From Botryllus schlosseri (taxonomy: Eukaryota), in assembly GCA_051294905.1 (NCBI GenBank), contig CM119371.1, positions 26,724,001 through 26,788,000 of the forward strand: a stretch of DNA of 64,000 nt, in the 5' to 3' direction. Below, one piece after another: positions 1-50,305 of the stretch (position 1 is its first letter; every line of letters starts with the position of its first letter). The position numbers and the translations under genes were made by a program. Below the pieces are notes generated by a model. The model saw nothing but the letters and a program-made list of their open reading frames with translations. It was not told the DNA's origin and searched no databases.

Positions 1-2355
1 GGTAAGTCCTACGAATTCATGATTTCGTCCGAGTTTGTATTTTAGTAATATATACTAATACCGCGTTTGTAACTTGTGCAAGTAGGCCTACAGGAATATC
101 ATAGGTAAAGTCTCTGTCTTGCATTTAGTTGCCGGCTCTGAAAGCAAGCAAAGTTTGTGGTATTTGCGCAACATCGAAATTTGTACACTTCACGCGGGGC
201 CTACGATACTTACGGCCTAATATGGCACATTACACTTGCTGGATATAAGAGGCCGACACTCCCAACCAGACATCACGACTGACTCAATGATTGCTTGCGA
301 TCTCACTTCTCGATACCAGACGCCTCGCCATACAAGTCTAATAAAGTATTATAACAGACAAAATTAGTTCTTTCAGATGAAACAACCCAATTAAGAGCCA
401 AGTGACAGCGTCGCAATGTATTTAATCGTTCGGGTAGACTTGAATCGTGATCCGGATCTCGTAACATAGTAAAATCGAGGTATGTAGTTTAATTACTCAC
501 TCACTACTCTATATGTTGGTGGTGGTCATACCCTGCAAACTTTTTTGCTGCGAACGTAGTGTTTCACCTTACATCAGTTGGTTCAATGTATGTACCGGGT
601 TGTGAAAACTGTCGCTGTTTTGACTATGTGTCACAATCAATACTAAATACGAGAATTCGTTACTCGTCGAAACGCCGCAGTCAGACATCGTTAACAGCGA
701 TTCCGTGTATGGCAATCTTGAGTTCAATTGCGGTTTTGTGATGTTAACCAAGCGGCTGTGTTTCTGCGGTGTGAAGACTGAATTCGTGTTGTTTCCCTGC
801 AAGAGTGCGATGTCTATTTCACACCTAGAGCAATTATAAAACGCATCTTCGAAACTTTTGGTCTAGTTCATCCGCTTGCATTTCGAAACGGACCATCACG
901 ACAAGACTCTAACCCACCACATCCGAGGTTTCAGTTGATCATATCGAAGAATATCATGTCCATCCGTGTTACCACCCACATCTTGGTTGAATGGCCGATG
1001 ATAAGCCAAATTTAATAACGGAATTACCATGCTTAACATTGAATCCCAACTCTAAACTTGATACGTAGTTGTAGGACAGTATGGCAATGCACCATGCTAG
1101 ATTTCATCACACATCTAATGATGGAACACCTTTGAAACTATCGCAGTCGAATACCGACTTTTACGCATATCTGTTTTTCGTGAACACAGCATATACCCAT
1201 ACATAGTCAATTTTAATAACAGAATTAGTATGCTAAATATTAAATTCTCACCTTGAACGTTGGTACGCAGTTGTAGGACATAATAAGAATGCACCATACC
1301 AAATTTCGTCAGACATTTCATGATGTAACACCTTTAAAACCAACGCAGTTCTATACAGAATTTTGGCTAAGTCTGTTTTTCCGTAGCGTAGCACGTACCT
1401 ACGCATATAGTCAACTTTAATAACGGAATTATCATGTTAATAATCGACTCCCAACTTTGAAACTCGCTACACCGTTGTAAGACATTATGACAATGCACCA
1501 TGTCAAATTTTGTTACGCATTTCATGATTGAACAACTTTGAAACTAATCCAGTTCCATGCCGACTTTTACGGGGGCGTAGCACGTACCTATGCATACTCA
1601 ACTTTAATAACGGAATTACCGAGCTTAACATTGAATGCGCAACTTGAAGATTGGTTCACAGGTGTAGGACATTATGACAATGGAACATACCACTGCGCTA
1701 ACTTTCAGAATTGTTAAGTATAGTACTCGCACTTTGTGAGAATACCCATGTAGGTTTTTGCCTACATGCACCAAATACTATCAAGTCCTTATGATATTGG
1801 AGTACATCAACTTCATGATAGCTAGAGTATTGAACAGAAATAGACCTAGAGTACTAACGTTTTACTTACTCGGAAATGTCTACTTCTACCTTATTTTAAA
1901 GGATACCTCGTTCGAAGCGAAATTTATGTGGTTTTGGATAATATCCAATATGTAGGCTCACTTTGAAGGGTACTTCCTAAAACTCAAATATTGCGCAAAA
2001 GTACAATTAGGGATTTAAAAGTAACTAATATAGATGGGTATTTTCGTAGATTACTTACCCTCTACTCAAGAGGTTTTTCAGGTGGAACTACCTACTTTTA
2101 GGACTGTGTATATCAAAGTAGTTTGAGCTTACGTTTATATCACCTTGACAAGTGACATTATCAGACATGAAAATGATATTATCACGTAATACCAGAAATT
2201 AACACACGTCAATGTGTTTCGGAATTCACTATAAATTGGTTACTAAGAGAAGTATATTCATGTGTACACAATAGCGGAGAGAATATTTAAAATGTAGTAA
2301 GCAGGCCGATGGATATGCATTGAGTTGTATAAGCATAAAAAACATTCCCGCGCGC

Positions 2356-2399
2356 TCCTAAACTCAACCCTGCCTAACCCTACCACCTAATCCTAAGAC
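2356..2399 (+). repeat. 44-nt palindrome spacer made of degenerate CCCTAA/CCTAA telomere-like units
   Basis: Reads tcctaaactcaaccctgcctaaccctaccacctaatcctaagac, clamped by cattcccgcgcgc / gcgcgcgggaatg. Confidence 0.7.
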
Positions 2400-3069
2400 G
2401 CGCGCGGGAATGTTTTTTATGCTTATACAACTCAATGCATATCCATCGGCCTGCTTACTACATTTTAAATATTCTCTCCGCTATTGTGTACACATGAATA
2501 TACTTCTCTTAGTAACCAATTTATAGTGAATTCCGAAACACATTGACGTGTGTTAATTTCTGGTATTACGTGATAATATCATTTTCATGTCTGATAATGT
2601 CACTTGTCAAGGTGATATAAACGTAAGCTCAAACTACTTTGATATACACAGTCCTAAAAGTAGGTAGTTCCACCTGAAAAACCTCTTGAGTAGAGGGTAA
2701 GTAATCTACGAAAATACCCATCTATATTAGTTACTTTTGAATCCCTAATTGTACTTTTGCGCAATATTTGAGTTTTAGGAAGTACCCTTCAAAGTGAGCC
2801 TACATATTGGATATTATCCAAAACCACATAAATTTCGCTTCGAACGAGGTATCCTTTAAAATAAGGTAGAAGTAGACATTTCCGAGTAAGTAAAACGTTA
2901 GTACTCTAGGTCTATTTCTGTTCAATACTCTAGCTATCATGAAGTTGATGTACTCCAATATCATAAGGACTTGATAGTATTTGGTGCATGTAGGCAAAAA
3001 CCTACATGGGTATTCTCACAAAGTGCGAGTACTATACTTAACAATTCTGAAAGTTAGCGCAGTGGTATG

Positions 3070-3750
3070 TTCCATTGTCATAATGTCCTACACCTGTGAA
3101 CCAATCTTCAAGTTGCGCATTCAATGTTAAGCTCGGTAATTCCGTTATTAAAGTTGAGTATGCATAGGTACGTGCTACGCCCCCGTAAAAGTCGGCATGG
3201 AACTGGATTAGTTTCAAAGTTGTTCAATCATGAAATGCGTAACAAAATTTGACATGGTGCATTGTCATAATGTCTTACAACGGTGTAGCGAGTTTCAAAG
3301 TTGGGAGTCGATTATTAACATGATAATTCCGTTATTAAAGTTGACTATATGCGTAGGTACGTGCTACGCTACGGAAAAACAGACTTAGCCAAAATTCTGT
3401 ATAGAACTGCGTTGGTTTTAAAGGTGTTACATCATGAAATGTCTGACGAAATTTGGTATGGTGCATTCTTATTATGTCCTACAACTGCGTACCAACGTTC
3501 AAGGTGAGAATTTAATATTTAGCATACTAATTCTGTTATTAAAATTGACTATGTATGGGTATATGCTGTGTTCACGAAAAACAGATATGCGTAAAAGTCG
3601 GTATTCGACTGCGATAGTTTCAAAGGTGTTCCATCATTAGATGTGTGATGAAATCTAGCATGGTGCATTGCCATACTGTCCTACAACTACGTATCAAGTT
3701 TAGAGTTGGGATTCAATGTTAAGCATGGTAATTCCGTTATTAAATTTGGC
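3070..3750 (+). repeat. Degenerate ~200-bp tandem array (mirrored at ~1005-1685)
   Basis: The marker ggtaattccgttattaaagttga and variants recur at 3135, 3322, 3526 and 3727. Confidence 0.85.
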
Positions 3751-5128
3751 TTATCATCGGCCATTCAACCAAGATGTGGGTGGTAACACGGATGGACATG
3801 ATATTCTTCGATATGATCAACTGAAACCTCGGATGTGGTGGGTTAGAGTCTTGTCGTGATGGTCCGTTTCGAAATGCAAGCGGATGAACTAGACCAAAAG
3901 TTTCGAAGATGCGTTTTATAATTGCTCTAGGTGTGAAATAGACATCGCACTCTTGCAGGGAAACAACACGAATTCAGTCTTCACACCGCAGAAACACAGC
4001 CGCTTGGTTAACATCACAAAACCGCAATTGAACTCAAGATTGCCATACACGGAATCGCTGTTAACGATGTCTGACTGCGGCGTTTCGACGAGTAACGAAT
4101 TCTCGTATTTAGTATTGATTGTGACACATAGTCAAAACAGCGACAGTTTTCACAACCCGGTACATACATTGAACCAACTGATGTAAGGTGAAACACTACG
4201 TTCGCAGCAAAAAAGTTTGCAGGGTATGACCACCACCAACATATAGAGTAGTGAGTGAGTAATTAAACTACATACCTCGATTTTACTATGTTACGAGATC
4301 CGGATCACGATTCAAGTCTACCCGAACGATTGAATACATTGCGACGCTGTCACTTGGCTCTTAATTGGGTTGTTTCATCTGAAAGAACTAATTTTGTCTG
4401 TTATAATACTTTATTAGACTTGTATGGCGAGGCGTCTGGTATCGAGAAGTGAGATCGCAAGCAATCATTGAGTCAGTCGTGATGTCTGGTTGGGAGTGTC
4501 GGCCTCTTATATCCAGCAAGTGTAATGTGCCATATTAGGCCGTAAGTATCGTAGGCCCCGCGTGAAGTGTACAAATTTCGATGTTGCGCAAATACCACAA
4601 ACTTTGCTTGCTTTCAGAGCCGGCAACTAAATGCAAGACAGAGACTTTACCTATGATATTCCTGTAGGCCTACTTGCACAAGTTACAAACGCGGTATTAG
4701 TATATATTACTAAAATACAAACTCGGACGAAATCATGAATTCGTAGGACTTACCTTAAACATATATTGTGTATAAACAACTTTTTACAAGAACTATAAAA
4801 TTCCACTCCAGGCGCTGCGGCTTAGCTCAAGCGAACAAGTATTTCGGACTTTAGGAGTCAAATTGTCTGTCTTATGGTAAATTAACATAGGGAGAATTAA
4901 TCAGAAAATTTTGTAGAGTATACTCTATACTGTAGGCATCGATACATTGAGTGAAATGGGCTTCCTTAAATTAAAACGGGTATAGAATAAATCGAAACAA
5001 TTTGCAAAGTCCCGTAGGCTTCAAGACATAGCTCAGGCTGAGATCATAGCCTAATAACGAGGGCTTCGAGTGCGATGTTATAGGAAGCAAGAAGAATCGT
5101 TGTAAAAGTGTTGAAACCTAATTACATC

Positions 5129-5680
5129 TGTAATTCCGTCATTAAAGTTGACTACGCATAGGTATGCGCTAAGCTCCCGCAAAACAGTTTCACGCAAATG
5201 TCGGTATAGAACTGCGTTAGCTTTCAAGTTGTTCAATCATGAAATGCGTAACAAAATTTGACATGCTACATTGTCATAATGTCTTACAACTGCGTACCGA
5301 GTTTCAAGGTGGGGAGCCGATTATTAACATGGTAATTCCGTTTTAAAGTTGACTATGTATAGGTACGTGCTGCGCTATGGATAACAGATTTAGCCAAAAG
5401 TCGGTATAGAACTGCGTTGGTTTTAAAGGTGTTACATCATGAAATGTCTGATGAAATTTGGTATGTTGTATTTTCATAATATCCTACAACCGCGTACCGA
5501 GTTTCAGGGTGGGGATTTGATTATTAGCATGGTAATTCCGTTATTGAAGCTTACTATGTATAGGTACGTGCTACGCTAGCGAAACACAGATTTACGCAAA
5601 AGTGTATAGAGAACTGCGTTAGTTTTAAAGGTATTGCATCATGAAATTGCGATCAAATTTGGTATGATGCATTGTTATTA
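5129..5680 (+). repeat. Second block of the same ~200-bp tandem repeat
   Basis: The marker recurs at 5129, 5331 and 5531; units share gaactgcgttggttttaaaggtgttacatcatgaaatg with 3403-3440. Confidence 0.85.
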
Positions 5681-6709
5681 CTTTTACTTCTATTTAACGG
5701 GTTTTCATATAAATCTGCTTACTTTTGTAACTTTGTTTTGTGAAGTAAAGAGTAGTTTACCGAATAAGTAGTTTACAAATTCCTACGATTTTTCTTGTTG
5801 CGTTCCGGGATAACATGTAATTTTTCGGTCTTTTTTATTTTTTATTTTTTAATTAGTATTCATTTTACAAAACGTCGTGTAAAGGTAAAGTACTTGTACA
5901 TTTCGTAGTGCTCAAGTATAAGTTTTTAACCTGTTAACTTGACAAAACTTTCAAGTACTACTTAAAGTGTTATAAAATGTGAAAATGTGTACAAGTAGAA
6001 TTATTATTATTATGTCATGAATAAGTAGTTTACAAATTCATACGATTTTTCTTGTTGCGTTCCGGCGATTTGCATAAGTTTCATCTATAACGTACAATGC
6101 GTTTACGCGGTCCAGAATGACTTATGGCGATGAAAAATAGCAAAAATGGTCTATTGAGCATTGAGCACGGTTCAAGAACTATGATATTCCTGTACTTGCA
6201 CTTCGAAATGGTTTACTGACCGTTGGTTCATTTAGATACCTAAGCTACTTTAAAATTAGTACTCGAGTATTTGGCTCAATTATACTATCGGGTAGTTATA
6301 GCCAGAGGGATTCGATGGTGACAACGGATGAGTTATCTCTGACCAATAGAGTAATATAACCGCCTATAGTTTAGTGGGGAATTGCTATAATGTATATCCA
6401 AACAATCGTTGCAGACTCTGAATGTTATCAAGGCCCTTATCACAAAAAATCATACATCAGAAGCGTAGGGATTGATATTATCAAGTCGCAGCGCTCAAAA
6501 TCGCATAGGTATTCAATACATATTGCTAAATACACATGGAAAATCGGTATTGAAATTCACAAAACATTGCAGTCGCCTAATTCCTCTGTGATGACATCAT
6601 AAACCGGGCATAGTCCGACGCAAATTATATTATGAGAGTGTTTACATTCTAAATAGCCTGAGGGGCGGTCTATAAGGTCGATAATAACACTACTGGGGTG
6701 CCTAGATAC

Positions 6710-7095
6710 CAGGTTTGTAATGACCCGACTCGAGTCACAATTTTCTGACGACTCGACTTGACTCGAGTCATTTTCTTAAAATACGGAAATGACTTGACTC
6801 GAGTCTATCTGTGTATTGACTGGTCTTGGACTCGAGTCATTGCGCATGACTCGAGCCAAGTCATATGACTCGAGACGCAGACGGGAATAGTTAAGTAACC
6901 ACACTATTGACATTTCGTCTTGGTACTGGTACTTGAAAAAGGGAGGGGAATCAGTAGATTATAGATACGAGCCATTCGATATCACCAAACAGAGTTATAA
7001 AAAGTGGGTTCATCAAGACATCAGTCAACACAATGACTTGGACTCGGATTCGAGTCATACTACCATGACTCGGACTCTGCTCGCTGACTTGACTG
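6710..7095. mobile_element. Fragment of a GACTCGAGTC-rich non-autonomous hAT-like MITE
   Basis: Dense gactcgagtc/gacttga motifs, the same motif class as 12332-13119, 17130-17443, 37524-38489 and 41810-42260. Confidence 0.65.
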
Positions 7096-8833
7096 GATTT
7101 ATTATGTAGAAATCAGATAATTTTTTTTCAAACTTTCTCGTTCGCCCCATAAAAGTTCTCGGTTGTCTACAGAAACGGTGATCACCAAATTTGGCTCAAG
7201 TCCAACATGTGGAAGCGGAGATATTGCAGTTCAAAAATTTGGATATACTGAAAATAGTAACCTGGTCACCGTAAACACTATTTTATTGAAATCCAAATTT
7301 TTCAAGTATAACTCCGCTCCCACTGGTTGAAATTGAGCCAAATTCGCTGACCATCGTTTCTGTACACAGCCTAACAATATCAGAACAGTAACAGAATTTA
7401 TTTTAATATTTTTAACAATTTTAATAATTATTATATAAAAAACTTTATCCCCTTGTAGCATTGAGGCCACTGGTTAGAATTGACCCAAATTAGGTGATCT
7501 ATTTGGTAATCTAGTTCATCGAGTAGTCAGTTCAATTTGAGAAAAAAAGTGATTTTTGAACACCCCTATTCTACAGAGGCTTGACAGACAGGCTATACAA
7601 GCAATATCTAACACCTACACATAATACACGCATTCAGCAGTCAATCCTTTCAGAGATATATTCTGATCGGTGCAAGGTCCGGTATCAGTCACAATCCAGC
7701 GCCGATGTATGGGCGCTACAACTCAACTAACACATTCATAATCGTAGTATATTTCGGATTATTGACGCTGTTTAAACTTGCGGCACATATTAGACTCATT
7801 CCGTTCTTTCACGCCACCCAGTTTCATAACCACTGTGCAATGTGATAAGATGCTTTGCTTTAAACTATATTAATGATTCAATTTGCAGGACAAGTCTTGG
7901 AGACTTATTATCATTTTAGAGTAGAATTTCTAACCACCAACACTGACGTGGAACTTGCATCACACAAGTGTTTTTCCGAAATCAACAATATTGAATTTCT
8001 ATTTAAAAAAATTGTATTAAAACAACCATTGCAGTGACCTCCACTGAAGTATAGGAAGTTGGTCAATGGGGACATGTAGGCTATGTACTGCCCTCAAGTT
8101 TTCACCTATTGTGATTTTAAATTTGTAATTTGAAAAGCTTGTTGGAGGTACAGAACTTCGATATGCGATTGAATAATCTATTCATATTGAAATAGACCCA
8201 ATTATTTTTGACTGATACTACATAGATGTAATCGTCAGCAACTGGAAGAGAATGGAAAAGGACATTAAATATCAACAGCCGTATCACAAAATAAACCAAA
8301 GCTCAATTTTATCGGAATCGGCTACATGTCAGAATGTACGACTTAATTTTTCCCGTGCATTCGATATCGCTTCTGCATTTGACGAAGGCATACGAATCAA
8401 ATCCCCTCTATCAGTGCCATGACAGAACATAGTAGTTGTAGAAGCCATAGTCCTTAAACCAGGGTATGTTGAGTATGCTGCATTTATCCTGTAATTTAGT
8501 AGGCCAATGCGGCATACCTGCAATAGGGGTGTTCAAATATGACTTTTTTCAAATTGTACAGGCTACTTGATAAAAAATTTTAGGTTACCTAATTAAAGGC
8601 GGCACACCAAATTTGGTTTAATTCCAAACAGTAGCCGTATTGCTACAAGAGAAGAAAGTTATGAATTTAATATTTAAAAAATAAATAGAAATTTGTTCAC
8701 GATTTTCTGTTCACCCCATTATATTGTTAGGTTGTCTATATAAACTACGCTCAGCAAATTTGGCTTAATTTCCACCAGTCCAAGCTGAGTTATTGCAGTG
8801 GAAAAACTTGGATTTGAATGTAATAGTATATAC

Positions 8834-10872
8834 CAGTGGTTCCCAACCTTTTTAGATGGCAGGGCCAAATTTAGAATTTCAGAGTACGGTCGGGGCCGCA
8901 CGAATACCAGGGCAATGAAAGGAACCACAAATAGTCACCAAAATATGAAAATAGGCATTGTTCCGATCATTCTCTTGTCGTCATAGGCCATTGTGTTGCC
9001 GCGCTCCCGTTGTTCATAACAATCAACATTTGCTGGCTATTTCGGAGTAGTTTCATTGCCCTGGCCAGATTTCAATTCGTATTTTTGGAATCAGTGCGAC
9101 ATTTGCTTTCGATAAACACAGACATATCAAATTATTCGGACGCTTGGCTCGCGAGCTATAGGACTACCAATTATGCTGCTTTTTGCCTGCTAAGCAGTAG
9201 GCATATCGGCGTATTCAATCGTGAGGCACTTGTTGCACGTCTATCCGTAAATTAGTTATCAATACCCAGGGCCGTAACAGCACTTCGTCGCCCCCATCCC
9301 CCCCCCAAAAAAAACGTTTCTCTTGGGCCCCCCATAGGGTGATACACCGAACTTCCAATCCCCCAGACCCACTCAGGTTAGATGACTGTTTACCGCTATT
9401 TATCATCTAAATCGGGTGTCCGTTTTAGGCAGCTTATCTCGACAAATCGCGCGAAGCGCGAAAAGTTTCTATAATTCATGATTGAATCGGTCAATATAAT
9501 CGGGAATTGCATATATATTGGTATCGATTTTTATCGTCTCTCTGCTCACGTAATCAGATTGACCGGTTGAGCCGAGTGAGTTGTTTTTGAAAAGGTAGGA
9601 CCACTCAATAATTATTAAACATCTTCGGGCGTATACCTGTTGGCAGGAACGAAACAGCACTTCGTCAGGCCCCCAAAACACTTAGGTCTTGAGCTCCTAT
9701 AGGGTGATAAACCGACCCCCCGTCCCATTGTTCGCTTCTGCCTCGAAATCAGGATCCCCGTTTAGTGAGCCAGCGTGGAGCGCGAAAATTTTCGATAATT
9801 CAAAATAAAATAGGTCAATAAGATCGGGAATTGCATATGTATTGCTAGCAATTATTCGTCCTCTCTGCTCACGTGATCAGATTTACCGGTAGAGCTGAGT
9901 GAGGTGTCTTGGAAACTGTAGGGCCCGTAAATAATAATTAAACATATTCGGACAGGCGGACCCGTTGGTACGACTTCGTTACATGACGTTATTTGTTATT
10001 TCGTGACCTCCAGTCTGCTATATCCAAAAATATAGAATCGCCCACTGCGTACTAAACTAAAAGATGCACACGATTTCTAATTGGTAGTTCTTCACCGGCA
10101 TATAATTCTTCGCTGCGGGATGGTAGCCTATTTGTCTCGTGACGTGCAGATTGTCAAGACAGGAACATTTGGCGCCAGTCATTTAGGCGCCTTTGGTCAA
10201 TTATGCCTATATGTATTTTGAATATACATAACGAAGTTTTCGGTCAGCGTAAGGGCAGTCCTTTTCGGCCAAGGTTTTCTCGCTGCCGATCGTTCTGGCA
10301 CACTTCTGGAAGTCGCATGTTACATGGCCTAAAACTTTATACGTCTTCGTGCGTCGTGGTGCGATAATGGCCAACGCCGATATGCCCACTTCTATAAATC
10401 TTGCGTACTTTATCTTGGTCGAAGAGTATACCCAATAATTAAGGTACTTGGAAACTTGAAATCTCGCGCAGCGCGAAAAAACTTTGAAAAAGTTGCATAA
10501 AATTTCATAAAATACTCTACAATTTATGGTAATTCACTAAATAATTTTGGGCCCCATTCGAGCTCGCCCCCCCCCCAATTGATGGCTGGGGGCTTGGGGT
10601 GAGGCAGTTCCTGTCCTGTCAATACCTATATCCATACCTATATCTATAGGTACTGCCCGTTCAACTGGAAAATTACGGCACATTGCATTGAAACAGCAGC
10701 GACGCCGTCTTAGCAGTCTACTCACAACTTGCCTGCAATCCTAATTGAAAACTCCAGACTCCAAGCCAAGCAAGAGTATTTTATAAATATTTTTTTTTTT
10801 ATAAATCGATTTCTCAATATTTTTGTGAGGGCCGCAAAAAGGCTAGCTGGGGGCCGCGGTTGGGAATCACTG
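8834..10872. mobile_element. hAT-type non-autonomous element, host of a nested MITE
   Basis: Termini cagtggttcccaacc ... ggttgggaatcactg; perfect 8-bp TSD GTATATAC at 8826-8833 and 10873-10880. Confidence 0.9.
9267..10618. mobile_element. hAT-type MITE (CAGGGCCGTAAC family) nested in 8834-10872
   Basis: 8-bp TSD TCAATACC on both sides; colinear with 58784-60094; contains an internal ~370-bp tandem duplication. Confidence 0.88.
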
Positions 10873-20897: not shown

Positions 20898-21054
20898 TAC
20901 CAGAGGAATGCATGAGGATTACACATTACCGAATACTTGGCTACGGAGGGCATCGCATTGAAAAACACATCAGGTATGAATTCGATTCGATGAATGTAGA
21001 AAACCGCTATTTGTTGTTTTCCTACGAAAGCTATGATTTAATGAAGTGACTCAC

Positions 21055-21371
21055 GTGAATTCGATCCTTGATACACCTTGTTATGATGCCCAATAGCTCA
21101 TCGTCGATACTGCATCTGGCTAAATTCAAATAATGAAGACTTTGATTCCTTGCTGCAAGCGATCCAACGATATGAGCTTCATCCCGACTCAGTGAGATGT
21201 TGTATGCAGTGATGCCATCAAGGCCTTTCATGAGATCCTCGTCGTCTGATTCATAGATCGCTGTGTAAAGTTCCATGAGAATGAGGCTGTTCACATTCTC
21301 TCTCATGTTCTTCTCGAGTTGAAGGAGAAGCGATCGAGCAATAACTTGATGCTTCTCTGTTCCATCGGAGA
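21055..21371 (-). CDS. NLR gene coding exon 4: post-NACHT helical region and first leucine-rich repeat
   Basis: Acceptor ttgcttcttgcgtcacag|TC (phase 1) and donor CAC|GTGAGT (phase 0). Encodes SLHYLNLARCSIDDELLGII, an RI-like LRR. Its phase matches the NACHT exon donor. Confidence 0.8.
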
Positions 21372-21523
21372 CTGTGACGCAAGAAGCAATATCGTGGTAA
21401 TCGTTGACAGTGCACTCTTTCGTAACAATCGGAAGATATATGCTACTGTGGCGACACAGGGTTAGAATGAAGCGATTGAACTCTTTGGATCGAGTTCACA
21501 TGAGTATTTTTCATTCGCATTTT

Positions 21524-21716
21524 AATCCAATCAGGGCAATGTAAATCCCTTGAAATACACCTCAAAATCTGAAAATTGCCATTGTTCTAAATAATCTCAG
21601 CGGCTCAGCACAATGACCACGACAATGGCCCTTGCGTGGTTGCGATTATTCAGAACAATGCCGATTTTCAGACCTTGAAGAGTATTTCAAGGGATTTACA
21701 TTGCCCTGATTAGATT
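21524..21716. repeat. ~193-bp foldback (arms ~75 bp), MITE-like
   Basis: aatccaatcagggcaatgtaaatcccttgaaatac ... gtatttcaagggatttacattgccctgattagatt. Confidence 0.85.
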
Positions 21717-22295: not shown

Positions 22296-22946
22296 ATCTA
22301 TAACCTATCAAGGTTCGTTTGTGAACGTGAACCTCTAAATTTCAGAGGTTCACATATAGAACGCTTCAACAATTCTAATTATAATTCGATACTAGATTTT
22401 GACTGATACCGAACCTTGCACTAACCAGAATATGTTCCTGAATGATGAATAACTAGTAAATGCATGTAGCCCTGTCATTGGTTATTGATTGAGCTTATAA
22501 TCAGTTACTGCTACTATCTACCATTGCACATGATTATGTTTAACAAAATTATAGACTGGAAATCTTTTCGCGTTCCGCGCCACTCCCTTCCAGCTACAAT
22601 TTACTGTCCCTCCGTTCTTTCGCGTATTTGACGTCACGTTAACGTTTTGACCAGCGCGAAACTGTACTGTGATAGTGCAATTCAGCTTGCTACACGAGAA
22701 ATCTGTAGACACTATTCGGTACTTAGCAACGGGCCACCTCGGAGTTCATGATCCCCACAAAACCAAGTGATTCGTCAATCTTGTAAGGAGGTGCATGCGT
22801 AGATGACGCAGTCACGACGTGATTAGACCACGTGATCACGGATTGCGCAAGCGCGGGAATTAACACGACGTTCACATATCGACCATGCGTGGTCGGCTCA
22901 GTGTTGATTTGACTTGGCAAGGGACGGACGTACGGCGTTTAAGAAG

Positions 22947-23769
22947 ATGGATCTCTGTGTTTCATGTAATAATGAAGTTTTAGAGGATGAAGCTGCCTTG
23001 AAATGCGATGGGTGCGGCATGTGGCAGCACATCGCTTGTGGCCCACAAGATATTATGTTTCGAGAAGACTACTTAAGAATTGTTAAGGAAGATTGTAGCG
23101 TGGCCTTCAAATGTACAGAATGTCGACCTGATTTGATTGTGAGTAATTCGAATAAGCCTGCTTTCTGGTTTTTAGGTTTTATTCATCTTAATTTTATAGC
23201 CACCACCTCAATCTCCAATTATGCACGTCGCCGGTGCTCAACTTATTGAATGTGCATGTGAAGGGGCACGTGCCTTGGATGCAACTCGATCAGTGCCATT
23301 TTACAACCACGTAAGTCAAACAATGCTATGCAGTTGGATGTGATCAAGTTTTGGCCATATTTGTAATTTGCAGGAAGACGATATTGTTGAATCAACCGCA
23401 GGGATCACATCCAAAAATTTCAAGCCGCAGAATTGGAGCGTTTACGATACTGCAATCCGCACGAACAATGATGTCGATGGATGGCACACCCGCCTGAACA
23501 TGCGAGGACGGCACAACATGCCAATGTATAACCTCATTCTTCTCTTGAATGAGGAAGCGTCGTTCTCGTACGAACAGGTGGCCCTCCTCTCTGAAGGTAA
23601 GATAAAGAAACGACACCGCTGAGAGTGTCGATTGATTGATTGGCAATTATATAAACTCTGGAATCGATTAAAGAAAGGGTGGAAGACACCCCGTCGCCTA
23701 CTAGAAGAAATTGCTGGTATTAATGCCATTAATTTAATGGGCCTATTTGTGAAGAACAAACCTGATTAG
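22947..23769 (+). pseudogene. Internally deleted MULE (Mutator-like) transposase gene with an N-terminal PHD finger
   Basis: ATG at 22947 gives CVSC..CDGCGMWQHIACG..CTEC (C4HC3 PHD), followed by a gtgagt donor at ~23139. The downstream segment WSVY...RTNNDVDGWHTRLN matches the MULE RTNNxxEGWHxxL motif. In-frame TGA at 23620. Confidence 0.75.
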
Positions 23770-25204: not shown

Positions 25205-28200
25205 TAGGGTTGTTCAGAATTGACCGACTTTCAAAAAGTATAGGTTTTCAGTCCGTTTCCCATGCCTTATACCTTAAAAACAAATTCTGGCAACTTTTTT
25301 TTGTAATTCATCCCCTGCATCCGTGTGCATATTGCCGTTTTTTCATGCACCTAAAAATTTAATCCGAATTAGGGGATTCCCCCATTGTCAGTGACTCGAC
25401 AGGAATGGCCTGTGTTCTCATTGACGTGACGCGTATGTTGTAGCGTTGATGAAGCGCTGAGCACGGCTGTGAAACGGGAATCATTGATTAGTCAGGTGCC
25501 TTGCTGCTTTGTTGTTGATGGACTGTGTTTACGATTGAGGTGCAGGACTTATCAGGCGGCGTTTTGACTCATGTTATTAGCGAGTTTAGCGCGTAATTAG
25601 TGAACATAGTATTATAGCAGTGTACAACTATTTGATATAATAGACCTGATACTCTTTTCCTTTCTACTGGGATAGAAACAAAGCTTGCAAATGTATATTC
25701 CAGTGACTGGGGAAAACCGCCAGTCGGTTGCTCTAATTTTTTGTTATATCCCAAGATATCAATATACTGGTATGAGTTTTTCCAATTTAGGAATAATTAT
25801 CTTTGATAATCTATAACTGGATCTAATCTGGCTACTCCTGTGAAAGTTATGCAGTATGTGTTCGACCTAAAACTCTAAAAGAACTGAAATGTTTTCCACT
25901 ATTCTTTGTTGCTTGACTGAGTTTATGTATATCTGTTTTTCTAGGATTAGCTGTAGTGCGAAATGTCTGAAAAAAAAGAAAATCGTCATCTAGTGCAGCA
26001 GTACCGAAGAAAACTAGAAGAACACGATCGCAGGCACAGCATTTCTTAGTTGGGCCATCTGAGGAAGCCATTACAGGATCGAAGTTGCCCACTCTGAGGC
26101 AAGTTATGCAATATGTGCTACACCTGAGAGAGCATTCATTTTTAAAAAATGAACCAGTCAAGTCACACATCCAGATCGCAGTAGATGAAGTGATCGGTTT
26201 TTGGTTACTTGCTGGCATAAAGACTATCACAAAAGTCAATGCCACTAAAAGATTGGAAACAGTGTGGAAACAATGGCTGTCACTAAAGAAAACTGCAGGC
26301 CAGAAATATGTATCAAAAAAACAAAGCGACTTTGAAGCCAAGCTGAGTAAGCTATGGGATATAGGAGCCCCTGACGCGATAGCGACAATTGAAGCAAGTA
26401 GACTTCTTTCTGACGATAAAAAACGTGAAGACATAGCATTTTATCAGGATCAAAGGGGTCCGAGATTAGCAACGATCGGTGGCAAAGATAAAGTGTTGAA
26501 AGCGAAAATCATGCAACAAAAGAGACGGACCATGAGTGCAAGAGAGTCTGCACCAGCATCAAGTAGCGAAGGTGAATTTACAGAGAGCTCATCTATATCT
26601 TCACAGGTAGCTGAAACTTCTCACAGCACTGATTTTGAACTTGCACAGTCGACATCTGGTCATTCCGCTAAATTTGTGACTCTAAAAGCGCCTGTAAACC
26701 TATTCAGCGACGAAGACCTATGCCAGGTTTTTGATCGCTTGAAAGTCAGTGATAATGCCGCTACCATGATAACTGCAGCACTGATTAAAGCTTGCGATGG
26801 CAACCCTAATGACTTCCATCTTTCAAGATCTGGAACCTATCGATGGCGCATTGCAAATCGTTTGCAAATTTCCGAATCTATCTTTGAAAAAATATCCACC
26901 AATCCACCAGAGCACATTGCATTGCACTGGGATGGAAAGCTCACCAAGAGTCGTCTAGGAGATCAATTCGAGGCCTTGGCAGTGCTCGCATCGTCTGCGT
27001 ATTCCGGCGCATTTAAGAAAGGGAAACTTCTTGGCATTCAAACTCTGGAAAGTGCTACAGGAAAAGCACAGGCTGATGCATCATTTGAACTGCTGGAACT
27101 TTGGAATTTAACAAAATCTGTTAGAGCTCTTGTGTTTGACACAACATCCTCAAACAGTGGTAAAAACAAAGGTGCGGTTCCGTTACTAGAAGAATTGATT
27201 AACAGGAAAGTTTTCTACAATGCCTGTCGCCATCATATTTATGAACTGGTCATTCGAGAGGTTTGGAAGTGTTTGTTTGGATCGACAACCACAGGCCCAG
27301 AAAACACGGATTTTAATACCTTCAAGAAGAAGTGGAAACATATTGATAAATCAAGAAGCTATAAAACGCTGAAGTTTATTGAAGGCAGCTGGTTGGCGAT
27401 GAAAGCTGATGAAGCAAAGCAAGAAATAATTCCACTGATGAAACCCTATGATGGAAAGCAGAAAGAAGTCTTGATAAGAGATGACTACAGAGAATGTGCA
27501 ACAGGCACCTTGGCAATTTTGGATGACAAATATGTTGATCATCGTTTTCGCAAGCCTGGTGCTACTCATAGCGCTAGATGGATGAGTCAAGTCCTGTACT
27601 GTCAAAAAATGTTCATGTGGAGTGAGCAAATGGACTATTCTGAAGAGTTCCTTGAAAAGTTGGAACGAATCAATACATTCATTGCTTTGTTTTATGTTCC
27701 AGCTTGGTTGAAAACTGGTATTGCATGTGACGCACCTTGGAATGATCTCAAGTTCCTTCATGACATGAAAAACTTTTCATTATGCGATCTCACTGTTGCT
27801 GATGTGGCATACAAGAAATTGCGAAAACATCATTGGTATCTAACTGAGGAAATGGTGGTATTTACCATGTTCTCGGCTAATCCAAAGATTCCTGACAAAG
27901 TGAAGGAAGCGATGGCTGCTAAATTGCTGAAAATGCCAATCCCTGAACAATTTCGCAGAGGTATACCTCTCAGTCTGATCTCTGACTCTGTCTCTGAGTC
28001 AATGAGTATGGTCGATTTGATTGGGCCAGAATCGTGGTTTCTATTTGATGCTATACATGTGGGACATGATTGGTTGAGTATTCCAGTTTTGGAATGGCAT
28101 ACTGATCCGGATTTCGTGACTGCTCAAGAATTTGTGAATAGTGTTGAGGTAGTTAATGATGCAGCAGAGCGTATGGTAAAATTGAATACCGACTATGCTG

Positions 28201-28840
28201 CGTTCATAACGGATGACAAAAAACAGCGAGCGAGCCTCCTACAAGCCGTGGAAGATCACCGGAACAGATATGCAGATTTCTCGAAAGCAACCATTTCATC
28301 CACCTGATTTATGTAATATTTTTCCAAGTTGATCTCGTTCTTGCCTTATTTTTTCGTTTCCTGTGACGTTTATTATGTGGCTGTGAGTGGATGTTACATT
28401 TACAGTTGTATTCTTGCACACGGGGATCCAGGAAATTGATGAACAGTGCCGAGTAGGTTTGAGGGGTGTAGGATATGTGATCCAACAAAATGATTATCAG
28501 TTTTAGGTAGGTTTGAGCAGTTCTAAGGCAGTGTGGGACATGGAAATGATATCCTGAACTAGGAATGCCTTATATAGTGGGGTTTTGTAGCAATCCAAAC
28601 CGCAACAGCTGCATAAATCCATTTTATATGTTACTTTAACTGGGCTAGGGAAAATCGTGACACTCAGATTTTAGGGGAATCCCCTATTTTCAGCTGATAT
28701 TCTTCCAGCTCAACATGCACACGGATGCAGGGGACGAATTACAAAAAAAAGTAGCCAGAATATGTTTTTAAGGTATAAGGCATGGGAATCGGACTGAAAA
28801 CCTGGACTTTTTGAAAGTCGGTCAATTCTGAACAACCCTA
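25205..28840 (+). mobile_element. Full-length hAT-superfamily (hATm-like) transposon, 3636 bp
   Basis: TAGGG...CCCTA ends; the first ~35 bp of the TIR are perfect and imperfect TIRs extend ~130 bp; perfect 8-bp TSD ATGTACGT (25197-25204, 28841-28848). Confidence 0.95.
26085..28307 (+). CDS. hAT/hATm-like DDE transposase (740-aa ORF; probable true ATG at 25963 is one base out of frame)
   Basis: Motifs LHWDGK, FDTTSSNSG, ACRHHIYE (CxxH), PGATHSARWM and VVNDAAER; lies between the TIRs. Confidence 0.92.
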   Translation: MPTLRQVMQYVLHLREHSFLKNEPVKSHIQIAVDEVIGFWLLAGIKTITKVNATKRLETVWKQWLSLKKTAGQKYVSKKQSDFEAKLSKLWDIGAPDAIATIEASRLLSDDKKREDIAFYQDQRGPRLATIGGKDKVLKAKIMQQKRRTMSARESAPASSSEGEFTESSSISSQVAETSHSTDFELAQSTSGHSAKFVTLKAPVNLFSDEDLCQVFDRLKVSDNAATMITAALIKACDGNPNDFHLSRSGTYRWRIANRLQISESIFEKISTNPPEHIALHWDGKLTKSRLGDQFEALAVLASSAYSGAFKKGKLLGIQTLESATGKAQADASFELLELWNLTKSVRALVFDTTSSNSGKNKGAVPLLEELINRKVFYNACRHHIYELVIREVWKCLFGSTTTGPENTDFNTFKKKWKHIDKSRSYKTLKFIEGSWLAMKADEAKQEIIPLMKPYDGKQKEVLIRDDYRECATGTLAILDDKYVDHRFRKPGATHSARWMSQVLYCQKMFMWSEQMDYSEEFLEKLERINTFIALFYVPAWLKTGIACDAPWNDLKFLHDMKNFSLCDLTVADVAYKKLRKHHWYLTEEMVVFTMFSANPKIPDKVKEAMAAKLLKMPIPEQFRRGIPLSLISDSVSESMSMVDLIGPESWFLFDAIHVGHDWLSIPVLEWHTDPDFVTAQEFVNSVEVVNDAAERMVKLNTDYAAFITDDKKQRASLLQAVEDHRNRYADFSKATISST

Positions 28841-38489: not shown

Positions 38490-40301
38490 GTTGCTACATG
38501 GCTAAAACTACCTGCCATTACGTCTTGATATATATTGGGTAATATGGTTAAATGTGTGATTGTTATACATGGACTAATAATCTCTGTCATTTTTCATTTG
38601 CTTCTGATCCGAGATCCCACTTTCGTTCACACACTGTCTCTTCGCGTTGACCTTCCTATAATTAGAATTCCAATTGTTGTTCTTTTTGGTTTTGTTTATT
38701 CCATAGATACAATTCGTGATCTTCTAGTGCAGAACTGTATCTAAGCTCAGCTGTACAATTGATATTCTGCGATATCATTATTCGATTAGGATTTTTCGGA
38801 TTATTGGACGACATTTTTGGATATAGTCGAATAGTTGGATGAGGCTCTTCGGAGTCGGACGGATAGTTCCGCAGACACCAAAACTGTCGATCGGATTCGG
38901 ATTCTCAAAAATCAACATCCGCTCGTCATTTGCTCCAAGCCGAATTATAATTGATCTGTCAGTACGAAGAGGCGTGTTCATTAACGCTTACATACGTAAA
39001 CACTAATGTTATTAAGTTGATAGAGCCAACCCGTTGACGATACATAAAATAAAAATTATGGATAGGCCGCCATCATTACCACTTTGGTTATTTGACTTTA
39101 AAATCTTTTTAAGCTTTCGATGAATTTTCTTCAACCAGTTATTACTTCCCGTTTCTTTACTTCCCGCTTCTCTGTCACCTGTCAGCAAATATTTCGAAGT
39201 AATAGCTGAACATCATGCCATTTCGAACGAAATCTCACATCAGTATAAGTATCAGTAATGAGTTGCATAAACAACATATATAGCACATGTTATTTCCAGA
39301 TAATACATCAATCACCTCGCTTTATCCTTCACTTTGATAGATTTAAGCACTGGTTTTCAACAAGTAGGCCATAGTATTAGGCTATTTTTAGATGTGACAA
39401 AGACCTAATATCAAAATTTCATGAAGTTGGTTATAGCGACATGAAATTCGGCGACTTTATTGATAAGAACCTCGTTACCGCGGTCCTGGCGTGTTTCGTA
39501 TGACCAACAATCGGTGCACGTCGCTAACGTAGCTAAAGGCCAAGTTATAGGACTTGAGAATATCCGCGTCGACGCCTAAGAATGCAGGTATGGTTTTCCA
39601 GATGAGGAACAAATAAACATCCACACTTTAATGGGCTGGTATACATATGCATGTTATATAATCCTACATGATCGATCCTAAATTTAATGCGGCTGCACGC
39701 ATTTTATATTTGTTTGTGACATTTCAATTGAACAACTAAAAAGGAATTTCACACGTTTTCTCAGAACTTTAGTGAATTTCGCTGATCACGGTGGTCCGTA
39801 CACAATAAAGTACATTGTACGTGGCAATAGTCAAAAGCTTATGATTACATGTTAGGATATTGGAGTGGAACTGGCATTTAGCAGCATGTTGTTAGTTGCT
39901 TACATCAACACATCAATACAGCTATGTTTTGTGAGTTGATTATTATACCGAAACTCCGCCGGATAAGTCTATTCGGAGTATTCGAGACTACTATGTGTAA
40001 TTTAGGTAACGTCTGTTTATTTAAGACAATATTGGGTGGATTTATTGCCTATTCAAGCGGTTCTCAACTTTTTTCAACTTATCGCCCCCTTAACTATCTC
40101 GACACAAATTTTCGCCGCCCTTCCGCCATATTTACAAATCCGAAAAAGGCGACATTTATTATGGGGAAATTTATGCTCCCAACTGAATTGCTCAGACTCT
40201 ACCAATTTATGAGGCTCCATGAGTCGATTTTGTGTACCCATTAGCACTGCAGGAGTGGAAATCAGGCATCATAAAACACAGTAACATGTATGATATCTAA
40301 C

Positions 40302-41696
40302 CTTGGTAAAGATCATTTCCTGATTTCTTGAAAACGACGCCTGCCACGAATCTTCGAACGACAGACCATCGTTCTCCATGAAGATATTCTTCGTCAAAGC
40401 GAGTAAATTCGCTGATCTTCATTTCTGCTATGAAGATCGCTGCCAGATATTCTTGAAGGCTTTGATGACAAAAGAAGAATGTGAAATCTCCTTGCATCAA
40501 ATGTCGGCTGAGTAGATTGTTTCCCGGAACTTTTGTCATTAAATCTTGGACTTCCTCCGCGGTCAATTGAAATGTTTCCAAGTCGCTTTCTCTGAATACG
40601 ACTCTTCCTTTTTTCATGCCATGAAATGACAATGCCTTCAGTTTGTTGACGATCGATAAAATTTGTTCCCGATTTCGAATGTTTTCGACGCTTTGAAGAG
40701 CTGATATGATCCTGTTGTATAGCTCTGTTACCGTTGTTGGAGGGGGTTTATCTGGATCCCTTCCCATCACAACTGCCGTTAGAATCAGAAAAACGGGTAC
40801 AGAGATTAGGTTGAGCAATCTTGGTGATATGGTTTCAATCTTCTGCCAGAGCTCCTCACCATTCTCTTTAAGTAAATATGCAAATAGCCTATGCGCGTCT
40901 TCATACGTAAGGCCATTCAGCGTGATAATGGTTTCGGGTCGCGCCATCGCCGGTAACTCTGAAACCTTGAATTCACGTGAAGCTATGTAGACATTAACGT
41001 GACGTAGGATATTCCGGGATAAAATGTTGTACATGATTGTCCCGCCGCTTGCTTTTTCGTGCTTTTTCATTTTGCGTGGATTTTTCTCAAAATCCCACCT
41101 TGCTTGATCAAGTCCGTCGAATATTAGGAGTGCTTCGGATTGATGTTTATCCAGCCATTTAAATGCCTGATCCTCTTCAAATTCATTATCGAAGAGCCCT
41201 CCAAATAAAAATTTCGATGGTTTAATATCGCCCTTCACTTCGACGTCCTTCAATTCAATATAATGTACCATTTTTTTACCGTAAGGGGACAGATCTTCAG
41301 CACGCTCAATTATTGGGGATGTGCCGAGAGCTTGTCGAGCTATTCTGCGTGTAAGTGTGGATTTTCCCGATCCTGCAGATGCCACAATAGCGGTTATACC
41401 AACTGTTTTTGGTGAGTCAATTTCTTTCTTTTGCCATATGGATGCCACTACGTCACCGATTCCTATATTTTCCGCTTTCATTCTTTCCTGCCGCAGAAAT
41501 CCAACTTCCTGTGTCAGCTGATTATTGTCATAACGACCTTTGTAATAATCATCAACGTCAACTTGACGCATCTGTGGGTAAACCTCAAAGTCAGGTTGCT
41601 GAAGCTTTTCATGTCTAAATTCATCAAGGATACCAATGGCCGTCACATCCATAGCATTTTCGTTGCAAATTTGTATGAGTTTTGTGTAGCTTATAT
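40302..41696 (-). CDS. NLR gene coding exon 3: NACHT NTPase with helical and winged-helix domains
   Basis: Walker A ASAGSGKST, Walker B LLIFDGLDQ, sensor-1 IASRE, winged-helix motif FCHQSLQEYLAA. Acceptor tactttcttttcag|AT and donor CAAG|gttaga, both phase 1. Confidence 0.95.
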
Positions 41697-42404
41697 CTGA
41701 AAAGAAAGTAATATTGCAAATCTACTATTACTAGTTACCAGAACCATCCTTTCTTGTATGGCAATTCGACTGCGCATCAACTTTCTAAGGCGACTAGCAA
41801 TGAGGTCCGGCAGGTTTGTAAAGACTCGAGTCATAACTTGAGTTAATTTATGTATCGACTCTACACTCTACTTGTATTCGAGTCATTGCGCAAGAATCGA
41901 CACATGTTACGTGACTTATTCGAGTCACGTATATCAGGCAGTGTTGGGATGACTCGAATCATCTTTTTCGTGTGACTTGACTTGACACGAGTCACTTTGC
42001 AAAAGTGACTTGACTAGACTTGATTCGAAGTTTCAGAAATCCGGATTGACTGGTGCAGCAAAATTTAGGAGTCAATTACAAGTAATCAAGTAATCGACGT
42101 CGACTAAATCGCTTCATCTTGTTCAAATTGTTAACGATACGCTGGTGTGATCTGTGAGAGCAACCAATTACTCAATGATTGTACGTTTTACCGAGCCATC
42201 ATTGTTATATTACAAATACATTGGTTGCAAACGAGTTGATCGGAGCTTACAGCTTACGTTTTAGTGAACTTGTCGTAATATGCTATTAATATGCTTTTAG
42301 GATTTGTAGACAAAATGATTGCATAGATATACTGGTATTTGAGAGCTGCAAAATTCAATGGTCAAACATTTCTTCTTCATATCATAAATGATGATACTAT
42401 ATAG

Positions 42405-42741: not shown

Positions 42742-45700
42742 TTATATAGTGTTGTAGTCCACAACGTCTTGGGAATGGTATATAATATGAGTTGCTTTGT
42801 TTGGAATACCTTCATGTTAAAATTAATAACTTGGTGTAGCCTATAGTACTAAATTCAATGTAGGAAGTTATCTCCATCACATTCTCAGTTGATTTAGTAG
42901 TCACATAAAGCACTACAACAACACCCAATAAGTGCGAATTTGGGATTTGTACATCTGGTTCAAGCCACATGGTATGAGCCCGTACCCGATGACTGTTGAA
43001 ACAAGCTTGATTTGATCAAGAATAGCCTACGCCACGTACAATTATTATATCGTTTATTAGTCGAGTGGTCCTTGGGCGAGATTGAAGCGCGAAATATTTT
43101 CAATAGTAAAGTCTTAACCCGAAATGGCCGACCATGCCTTGACCTCTTACCAGGAACCCTCAATTTCAGAAGACGAACTTGAAGGGGCCCGAAATTATTG
43201 CGGTGAATAAACATCATTTTATTGGATAATTTATGCGACTTTTTTCAACTTTCGATTTGGCGTTGCAAAATTTTTGATTTTTGCGTACCCTTCCCCACGA
43301 AAAGATACGCATGATTCAAAGAAAATAGAAATTAGTATTTCGGCGTCGGCCATTACCACGCCACGATGCGCGAAGACATATCAAGTTTGGGCCAATATGG
43401 GTCTCAGAGAAGTGTGTCAAACAGATCGTCAGCGAGAAAACCTTAGCCGAAAATGATTGCCCTCATGGTGACTGTAAACTTCATTACAAATATGTCTAAT
43501 TGTCCACAGGTGGTTCAATGGTTCGTGCCGATTTATCCTGTCGCGACAATCTGAACCCCACAGATCAAATAACATCATTAAGATACAAATTATTTGACAG
43601 TGAAGATATATATCAATTTTTAATAGTTTGAGTCTTTTAGTTTTGTACGTTTATGTGATGTCAATATCATTTGACAGGAGGTCACAAAATAACAACATTT
43701 AACGAAGTAATTACACCAACAGGCTGGGGAAGCGAGTTCCGTAGTTGGTTAAACACTGTATAGTCAGGACATCGATGGCTGATGGTTCGAGTCTCGGCTC
43801 TGCCATGTTTCTATGTGTCGGAGGTTTATCTGGTCTCTTCATCGCCGATCCCGCTGTAATACAGCGCATTGAAAAGCCCAGACGAAGAGAGAGCCGAACT
43901 CGTGAAAGGAGGCAGCAAATGAGCCGAAAAAAGACTCAAGCTCAAGAAGACATGCCAATATGACATTATGAAATGTACTGTGTGGGCGCAAATAACCACG
44001 ATGTTGCAAGCGCTAATTATATGCGTTAATAAAAACAACAACAACAACACCAACAGGCCCGCTCGAATATATGTAGTTAATAATTACGTTCCCTACAATT
44101 TCCAAGACATCACCTCACTCGACGCAACCGGTAATTTTTATTACGTGGGCTGAGACGATGGGAAATCTACAGCAATATATATATGTAATTCCCAATATTC
44201 TGCTCCGATTCGTGCATGCAGTATAGACATTTTTCACCCCGAACACGACCAGGCCTCATAAACTAAGCTGACCATCGAAAACTCGCGACGAGAGTCTTGG
44301 GGGTGAAGTCCCCCATAAGTTTGGTTTATCACCCTATTGGGGACCAAAGCCAACGTATTTGAGAGTAGGAGCTGACGAAGTGGTCTTACTGCCTCCATCT
44401 TAATCGTTGTTTTTATTACAGTGCCTTAAATATGGAGTGGGGGCGTAGCGCACGGTATTTTTTGAAATTGGACGTTGGGGAATAAAAGGTCAAAAACCAC
44501 TACACTGTAAACGATCATGGTGTGTGTTCTGGAATTCACACCCCAGTGTAGGGTATTTTCTGAGTCATCACAACTTTTTGGGTGCTAAATCTGTCACTTA
44601 CACCTATGCTAGTGATATGAATAAGCCAAATACACCCATACCATAAGAGACACACCCCAAGCATTGGTATTTGGGGTGAATTATCAGTGATGACCAGCAT
44701 GATTCGTTCATCCAGATAGCTTATCTGCGACAAAAAGGAGAATGATTTACATATTTGACAGTGGCCACCTCTGACTAACTGGTAAGAGTATGTAACCCGT
44801 CAAACAAACTACTTATTTTGAAACTACTGTACTTATCTGAGTACTATTAATATATTTATTTTATTTAAAGTAGTTTCGACATGGATTTGACATTGCCAGC
44901 TTCATACACTCGTTCTTGAGTGAAAATTAACATCTACTGCTTGAGTATCATCGTACACTATTACAGCCACATCAGTGTGTAACAGTGCACGGATTAGCTT
45001 GGTCTTCAATGTTTTTATGAATATGATGAGACAAACATAGCCTTGCCAAGGTTAATAAACTGCACTTTTTTTATCAATGCACGAAAATTCTAATACAAGC
45101 ACTCCTTTACTCATGATATGAAATAGGCCTACACACGATCTGTGCATTGCATAATATGGACAAATCTTCTTAATGTTAGATTCAAGGAGAAATTGATATT
45201 AGTGGCAGACTCGTACTTTGTGAATGTGAAATCAAATATTTTGTTGGTGAGTAATATACTATACGAAGGTGAGCTGCAAAATTGTATTTTGACTCGCTTA
45301 TTTTCAAGCACAACGCCAGTCAATGCGACAACATCTGTGCACATATCAGATGCCTTAGCAGTTTAGAATCCAGTCCAAATTGCCAGCTAAACGTTTATGC
45401 CTCATGTTATTTTTTTCAATTTTAGGATGGTTACCATACAAAATCTTGTCAGGGAATTTCAACCAAGTCGACGTCACATCGAACTGCATTACCGTATGCT
45501 GCGCAACAGTCATGGATCGTTATCAAACAGCACATATTCCTAGGTAATCATTAACATCCAGCTAATTTGCTAACTTCTATAACAAAGGCAATTCGAGGTT
45601 TTCTAATCAAGACACACTCAGACCTGTATCTGTGGTCGCTGTGAATCCATTCTGAAAATCAATATTGCCTATAAGCAGAAAATGTTTCGTGTTTTGCATC

Positions 45701-49361: not shown

Positions 49362-50305
49362 CAATAGGGTGATAAAACTAACTACTGAGGGGCTTCGCCC
49401 CCCAGACCCCCCTGCGGCTCTAGGCTTCTTCCGGTACTTATCATGTACATTGGGTGCCCATTTAGTAGTCATTAACGGCCCTAAACGCGCGAAGCGCGAT
49501 AAAATTTCTATAATTTGTGATTGCATCGGCCAATATGATCGGGAATTGCATATAGCCTGTATCGCTATCAATTTATCCTCTTCTCACATAATCAGATTTA
49601 CCGGTAGAGCTGATCCAGTGAAGTGTGTTGGAATAGATAGGTCCTCTAAATAATAATAAAACATCTGCGGGCGTACCCGTTGTTATAATGACTTCGTTAC
49701 ATGATGCGATTTCGTGACCCCCTTCTGCTATGGCAAAAGATATTGAAATCGCCAAAACGTACTAAAGTAGAAAACGTAGCCTAAACGATTTCAAATTGGT
49801 ATTTCTTAACTGGAAAATTATGTTCCCTCGATATTGCATTTGTCTTGTTGTGGGACTCGGATCGCGAGGATAGGAACATTCGGCGCCAGCCATTTAGGCG
49901 CCCATGGACATCGCACAATTACACATATATTTGTATACATCGAAGTTTTTGGTCGGCACCGGGGCAGTCTTTTTCGCCCACGGTTTTCTCGCTGCTGATC
50001 GTTCTGGCGCACTTCTTGGATTCGCATGTTACATAGCCTTTAAGTTCATACGTCTTGGCGCGTCATGGTGCGGTAATGGCCGACGACCAACTGCCCATTT
50101 CTATAAATCATGCCTAATTAATGTTGGGAAAGGGTACCCAATAATCAGATATCTTACAATAATAAAACGCGCGTAGCGCGAAAAAAAAATTCTTGAAAAA
50201 TTTCAAAAAATACACCATGATTTATGCTACTTCTCGATATAATTTTGGCCCCCCTTCGAGCTCGGCCCCTCCAATGAGGGGGGGGGGGCGAAAGTTACGG
50301 TCCTG
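49362..50305. mobile_element. 5'-truncated copy of the CAGGGCCGTAAC MITE family
   Basis: Colinear with 9700-10618 and 59210-60094; ends gttacggtcctg. Another partial, inverted copy lies at ~43050-43800. Confidence 0.75.

Follow-up and report, generated by a model that had tools for sequence, protein, structure and literature searches.

A large palindrome lies at the left edge of a 64,000-nucleotide stretch of the Botryllus schlosseri genome (assembly GCA_051294905.1, contig CM119371.1, positions 26,724,001 to 26,788,000 of the forward strand), which is referred to as the window in the following. The structure is symmetric, has a telomere-like loop at its centre and no recognisable genes, sits in the middle of a long assembled piece and reaches one candidate end motif beside host repeats. 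We consider it rather probable that we are looking at the middle of a genuine gene-less mobile element of about 8.6 kb, which was inserted recently, forms one end-to-end hairpin, has ends of the Maverick/Polinton type, (AGT)2//(ACT)2, and would act as a non-autonomous snap-back satellite. The coordinates of its parts are collected in Table 1.

Geometry of the palindrome and its apex

A scan of 1600 axes placed the centre of symmetry at i + j = 4755, where 2358 of 2377 pairs are complementary, with the runner-up axis reaching 30%. Aligned with each other, the two arms show no gap and two mismatches (423/4332 and 2016/2739), corresponding to a pairwise divergence of 0.085% (95% Poisson interval 0.01-0.31%), and the remaining repeat pairs of at least 100 bp in the self-comparison of the window have identities of 66-94%. 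The original prediction for this DNA, which announced near-identical arms of at least 2355 bp that resemble each other more than any other repeat pair, was therefore borne out. Its further statement that the arms cut across unrelated repeats found no support, as the region 2400-5700 had no match in 5901-64000 at E ≤ 0.05, and the 200-204-bp repeats within the arms therefore appear to belong to the element itself. Both mismatches consist of a T in the left arm that faces a C implied by the right arm, and the two positions are located in the context ATT(C/T)AA, of which there are nine sites per 2355-bp arm. Two differences are too few to tell deamination, sequencing bias and chance apart.

The window is interior to a long piece, which extends for at least 26.6 million letters on its left side and 13.8 million on its right side, and consists of animal DNA, with an open reading frame (ORF) for a NACHT domain and transposon remains. 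Position 1, which had been proposed for checking as a possible contig start, turned out to be merely the window edge inside a piece that is tens of megabases long. The arms are therefore cut off rather than ended at this point, and the palindrome indeed runs off the window edge, as had been stated, with arms that continue past position 1. A scaffold gap may be present directly before this position.

The innermost part of the hairpin is a short, GC-rich inverted repeat, a geometry that agrees with the proposed fold-back about such a repeat. DNA folding of the apex left 39 nt open plus one bulge in the structure of minimum energy, in which two inner pairs form, or 44 nt in the centroid structure, while the 44-nt loop folded alone gave no predicted structure on either strand. 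Compared with (CCCTAA)n, the loop scored 38 over 41 nt, a value that was reached neither by any of 1321 other tiles of the window (maximum 18) nor by any of 2000 shuffled versions of the loop. The predicted telomere-like character of the loop thus holds far above both backgrounds, albeit in degenerate form: the 44 nt do not contain a single exact CCCTAA and consist of about seven degenerate units, all on one strand. The G-rich strand of the loop has seven GG/GGG runs and a G4Hunter-type score (own implementation) of 0.89, with 1.24 for the best 25-mer; the score is matched by 7 of the 1321 window tiles, and a quadruplex may form on this strand.

Outer arm, candidate end and coding content

Since internal motifs are shared, namely a second array of repeat units and a 16-mer, the right arm seems to extend beyond position 4754, up to which it can be verified against the left arm. 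The segment 5963-6694 is tied to the element by the 16-mer that it has in common with the verified arm, and this link exceeds the background, as the common stretch stays below 15 letters in every one of 78 host tiles of equal size. Of the region 6695-64000, 22% is occupied by dispersed repeats, compared with 10 bp of 2400-6694. The distance between the ACTACT motif at the border of these two regions and the first host repeat at 6710 is 15 bp, and 13 of 15 letters at the start of this host repeat resemble the terminus of the copy at 13120. The commonest end motif of vertebrate Mavericks is (AGT)2//(ACT)2, and their insertion is accompanied by 6-bp target duplications (Barreat and Katzourakis 2021, PMC8097293). 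In a directed test of this single motif, the chance of finding ACTACT within 17-25 bp of the boundary amounted to 0.8-1.2%, given a frequency of 28 per approximately 58 kb in the window. Among the sites considered, the ACTACT at 6689-6694 is the most likely right end of the element and thus our candidate. By symmetry about the axis, the element would then be 8,634 bp long and extend from window position -1939 to 6694, starting 1,940 bp before position 1.

Other sites were considered as ends and appeared less likely. The ACTACT at 5957-5962 is disfavoured because a 47-bp internal repeat lies on either side of it, an end at the ACTACT at 11554 would enclose 3.1 kb of host repeats, and CTCTCT sites are located within a dispersed repeat or a microsatellite. 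Outward-facing AGTAGT motifs are present in the right arm at 4247-4252, 5751-5756 and 6024-6029 and, together with the ACTACT at 5957-5962, may be left over from ends that were nested or duplicated. When read inward from the candidate end, the region 6595-6670 of the window contains a GC box (CCGCCCC) and a TGATGTCA motif, which we take to resemble the Sp1 and ATF sites of adenovirus ends.

Table 1. Parts of the palindromic element and its right flank (window coordinates).
Feature	Position	Strand	Basis
Left arm, visible part, truncated at the window edge; predicted 1,940 bp more upstream	1-2355	+	Self-comparison, axis
Mirror of array 1 in the left arm, 200-204-bp repeats	1004-1692	-	Self-comparison
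GC-rich innermost stem, left side, CATTCCCGCGCGC	2343-2355	+	Arm alignment
Apex loop of 44 nt, degenerate CCCTAA-like units	2356-2399	.	Arm alignment, repeat scoring, folding
GC-rich innermost stem, right side, complement of CATTCCCGCGCGC	2400-2412	+	Arm alignment
Right arm, verified against the left arm	2400-4754	+	Mismatches at 2739 and 4332
Array 1, units of 187-204 bp, 73-79% alike	3063-3751	+	Self-comparison
Inferred rest of the right arm, partner outside the window	4755-6694	+	Common internal motifs
Array 2, units of ~200 bp	5127-5680	+	80% identical to array 1, in register (unit pairs 87%, 86%)
47-bp direct repeat of 5762-5808, 46/47 identical, AGTAGT in both copies	6019-6065	+	Self-comparison
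16-mer that recurs unchanged in the verified arm at 4651-4666	6179-6194	+	Self-comparison
ACTACT, candidate Maverick-type (ACT)2 right end	6689-6694	+	Motif according to PMC8097293
GGGGTG, predicted 6-bp target-site duplication, left copy beyond the window	6695-6700	+	Prediction only
First dispersed host repeat, flank outside the element	6710-7053	+	Self-comparison

Reading frames of 100 codons or more are absent from the element, and the longest one listed in the arm parts has 97 codons (3893-4186); it has no homologue and no usable Atlas match. Pfam searches at the cut-off gave no match for 24 ORFs and for 24 read-through frames, the latter from a scan that covered all but about 0.9 kb of the outer arm, and neither did PHROGs for 11 ORFs nor Rfam for the region 2300-5700, where no match was found at E ≤ 1. 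The gene set of an autonomous Maverick/Polinton (protein-primed DNA polymerase, integrase, ATPase, protease and capsid) was not found in the arm parts scanned, and the Pfam scans did not reveal a transposase in the element. Two matches of the read-through frame 3919-4290 were dismissed: both are proteins made of tandem repeats, and their scores add up from 11 and 5 short stretches, respectively; for the single match compared, the best BLASTP piece reached 13 of 35. We also dropped the idea that the 204-bp unit could be a coding repeat of 68 codons, because the length of the units varies between 187 and 204 bp and every frame contains stops.

Searches at the nucleotide level in collections of viral, metagenome and prokaryotic sequences were likewise unproductive. 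The terminal 19-mer had no match in viral contigs, the repeat-unit motif had none in viral and genome contigs, and there was no match among phage records. The apex pattern and the stem pattern gave one and no match, respectively, in viral contigs and two matches in prokaryote genomes, all of which extend over 21 bp or less and are due to chance. In metagenome contigs, the only match of the apex pattern was a bacterial intergenic palindrome that is dissimilar to the window. The contig concerned (L001) contains two copies of this bacterial intergenic palindromic repeat, at 699-795 and 1708-1824, which are unrelated to the window.

A different type of evidence was obtained from the occurrence of sequence words in other sequencing runs. 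Words of the region 2380-8000 are partly present in 21 of the 24 runs listed, which stem from 12 studies. Four runs of one sample have shares of 0.54-0.78 of these words, and shares of 0.36-0.45 were obtained for five runs that bear the same organism label but stem from three other studies, including runs of 2 and 25 million letters. As the flank makes up 23% of the query, the latter values suggest, if words are evenly sampled, that part of the arm is present in other samples, probably at high copy number; word sharing without alignment is weak evidence and is silent on symmetry. Metagenome runs and runs of other organisms have shares of 0.20-0.39 and were discounted as evidence.

Origin of the palindrome

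Vertebrate Mavericks, when intact, measure 12.7-24.6 kb, carry eight genes and have inverted repeats of 46-1,447 bp (PMC8097293). The element described here resembles Mavericks/Polintons in its candidate (ACT)2 right end, its inverted ends, its residence in an animal genome and a 6-bp duplication that is predicted in our case, and it differs from them in that the inverted repeat accounts for 99.5% of the predicted 8.6 kb and that no gene was found. With arms of at least 2355 bp, and of 4295 bp each according to the prediction, it also falls outside the dimensions of an autonomous Maverick (approximately 13-25 kb, with inverted repeats of less than 1.5 kb). The element is accordingly no autonomous Maverick, and it would function as a snap-back satellite of such a transposon. 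Snapback genomes of adeno-associated virus (AAV) are comparable, judged by description, in that one end is copied back to yield a self-complementary, helper-dependent and symmetric molecule with a small loop; they differ in being packaged as single-stranded genomes in parvovirus particles, in their dependence on Rep and in not being integrated into the germ line (PMC8235507).

Several observations weigh against this interpretation and have to be set beside the evidence that supports it. The window contains neither a Maverick gene remnant that would link the element to a helper nor a helper itself. The end call is based on one 6-mer, for which the ACTACT motifs at 5962 and 11554 are alternatives, and by eye the region 6688-6706 also resembles the terminus of a host miniature inverted-repeat transposable element (MITE) in 13 of 19 letters. 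Only one end is located inside the window, such that the left copy of the predicted target duplication lies outside, and the repeat-free stretch 2400-6684 is merely the third longest in the window. The terminal 16-mer occurs in 21 viral contigs, in none of them at the contig end and in none with an extension past 26 bp. Finally, words of 2380-8000 are almost completely missing from three further runs that carry this organism label and comprise 1 million letters each.

Long inverted arms, internal tandem units and a non-coding nature are also typical of foldback transposons such as Drosophila FB, Galileo and Tetris, whose arms carry arrays of tandem units and which generate target duplications of 7-10 bp. 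The palindrome could be a genuine palindromic or foldback transposon of a different class (FB/Galileo/Tetris-like or Mutator/Rehavkus-like, with satellite units in its arms), or else the element proposed above could end at another site; a cut-and-paste transposase would mobilise it in trans. The long inverted arms with tandem subrepeats, arranged as two arrays of units of about 200 bp, fit this proposal, as does the fact that the Maverick assignment depends on a single 6-mer, with which the MITE resemblance competes. On the other hand, the arrays are internal, lie 1.4 kb apart and do not form the ends, the arms are 99.9% identical around a loop of merely 44 nt, and the candidate end, ACTACT, is situated at the host boundary, where chance would place it in about 1% of cases. 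On these grounds, we regard another foldback type or another end as unlikely.

The original prediction had offered two options, either a chromosomal foldback or hairpin-capped end, or a chimera. The fold-back geometry behind them stands, whereas both options are probably wrong in view of the location in the middle of the piece and of an arm that seems to reach a Maverick-type end motif beside host repeats. A fold-back chimera that arose during amplification or in a long read and was built into the assembly would explain the near-perfect arms, all the more as amplification often yields palindromic reads (PMC13265396), and the two mismatches, which agree in direction as well as in their ATT(C/T)AA context, could be systematic errors. 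Such a chimera would nevertheless need a second false joint, because the site is in the middle of the piece; moreover, the arms differ by substitutions instead of homopolymer indels, the turning point coincides with a special, telomere-like sequence and is not random, and the DNA within and past the arm acts as one element with an end motif. We therefore regard an artefact of library or assembly as quite improbable. Tetrahymena rDNA is a large palindrome of the kind that is primed by a short inverted repeat. In yeast, inverted duplications start from short inverted repeats whose spacers measure 6-35 bp (PMC10622511). The geometry observed here, with a short inverted repeat and an unpaired spacer at the centre, would also result from a one-off event on the chromosome, in which a double-strand break next to such a repeat primes an inverted duplication by fold-back, as in yeast foldback inversion or breakage-fusion-bridge cycles. 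The known cases are chromosomal rearrangements or programmed amplifications, whereas the present structure is apparently a bounded mobile unit. Host repeats, which account for 22% of the remaining window, are absent from the arm, part of it is apparently present at high copy number in other samples (from word sharing, a weak argument), and events of this type run toward the chromosome end and require a second rearrangement (PMC10622511). A one-off duplication consequently appears very doubtful to us. The telomere-likeness of the loop beyond chance might finally suggest that the loop is what remains of a telomere, either at a chromosome end capped by a hairpin or at a site of telomere fusion. 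We regard this as extremely improbable, as the structure is not terminal but located in the middle of the piece and the loop consists of about seven degenerate units on a single strand without any exact CCCTAA, while a telomere fusion is expected to show head-to-head arrays. A palindromic mobile element, a possibility that the original prediction had not contemplated, accounts for more of the observations than a foldback, a hairpin-capped end or a chimera.

How could a Maverick-ended hairpin element have come into being? According to the model for the copying of Mavericks, an excised single strand forms a racket-like structure and is copied by the element's own protein-primed polymerase before integration (PMC4196379), and strand displacement has been reported for a Polinton polymerase (PMC5499653). 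In the ancestor, a strand from protein-primed, strand-displacing synthesis may have turned back on itself at the short, GC-rich inverted repeat flanking the 44-nt loop and served as its own template, which would have duplicated one end region, dropped the core genes and given a hairpin with two identical ends. Both ends of the element would be the same origin, and therefore the polymerase of a helper Maverick could copy the hairpin into a linear palindrome and the integrase of the helper could insert it with a 6-bp duplication. The near-identity of the arms would reflect either a young insertion or fold-back or hairpin repair that renews one arm from the other. The telomere-like loop would serve as the unpaired turning point and possibly as a polymerase pause site on the G-rich strand. 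Helper dependence, renewal of the symmetry and any role of the loop are what we infer within this scheme. More speculatively, and as a tentative idea that we would not yet call likely, the element could be a gene-less 8.6-kb germ-line satellite of the snap-back type that accompanies an animal Maverick virus and is reduced to a minimum, with its functional parts confined to two identical protein-priming ends and a quadruplex-prone, telomere-like 44-nt apex that forces the helper polymerase to turn, such that each cycle rebuilds one arm. In that case, the two T/C differences between the arms in the same sequence context would be deamination marks from a single-stranded stage.

Maverick replication is known mainly from the racket-like single-strand model (PMC4196379). 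If our interpretation of the palindrome as a Maverick-ended mobile element is true, a gene-less hairpin with Maverick ends would be a natural product of the Maverick replication cycle, of the defective-interfering type, and the model would become testable via arm identity, apex conservation and extrachromosomal hairpins. The copy described here would contribute a short variant of 8.6 kb with a small loop, along with a characterised apex. We found no published description of gene-less palindromic Maverick-ended elements in the openly readable literature, where the only match for 'non-autonomous Polinton' concerns Tlr1; the accessible parts of PMC8502044 contain nothing on palindromic or defective forms. 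For practical purposes, perfect palindromes in this assembly should not be discarded as chimeras unchecked.

Other features of the window

Outside the palindromic element, the window contains an apparently intact DNA transposon of 3,636 bp at 25205-28840. It has inverted ends TAGGG...CCCTA of about 141 bp that are 94% identical, and it is flanked on both sides by the 8-bp target duplication ATGTACGT. Its 778-codon ORF (25971-28307) has 54 homologues, several of which are named Cc8K15.2-like, and no Pfam match. We presume that this transposon is hATm-like.

A frame of 474 codons on the minus strand (40297-41721) encodes a NACHT domain (E 2e-15) and is likely part of an NLR-type gene. A weak leucine-rich-repeat match (E 0.03) was found for a 154-codon frame on the same strand at 21031-21495, at a distance of 19 kb from the NACHT frame, and both are possibly exons of one gene. 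Two frames on the plus strand have similarities below the cut-off, a PHD-finger-like frame at 22908-23249 (E 0.002) and a GIY-YIG-like frame at 53677-54186 (E 0.006), the latter possibly a Penelope-type remnant.

A dispersed repeat family of 1.3 kb is represented by at least four copies (9267-10618, 49364-50308, 58780-60097 and 43157-43723) with 65-77% identity. A small foldback element is located at 21513-21716, with arms of 76 nt that are 88% complementary and a spacer of 41 nt, which by inspection is not telomere-like; a diverged relative of this element is present at 8908-9082.

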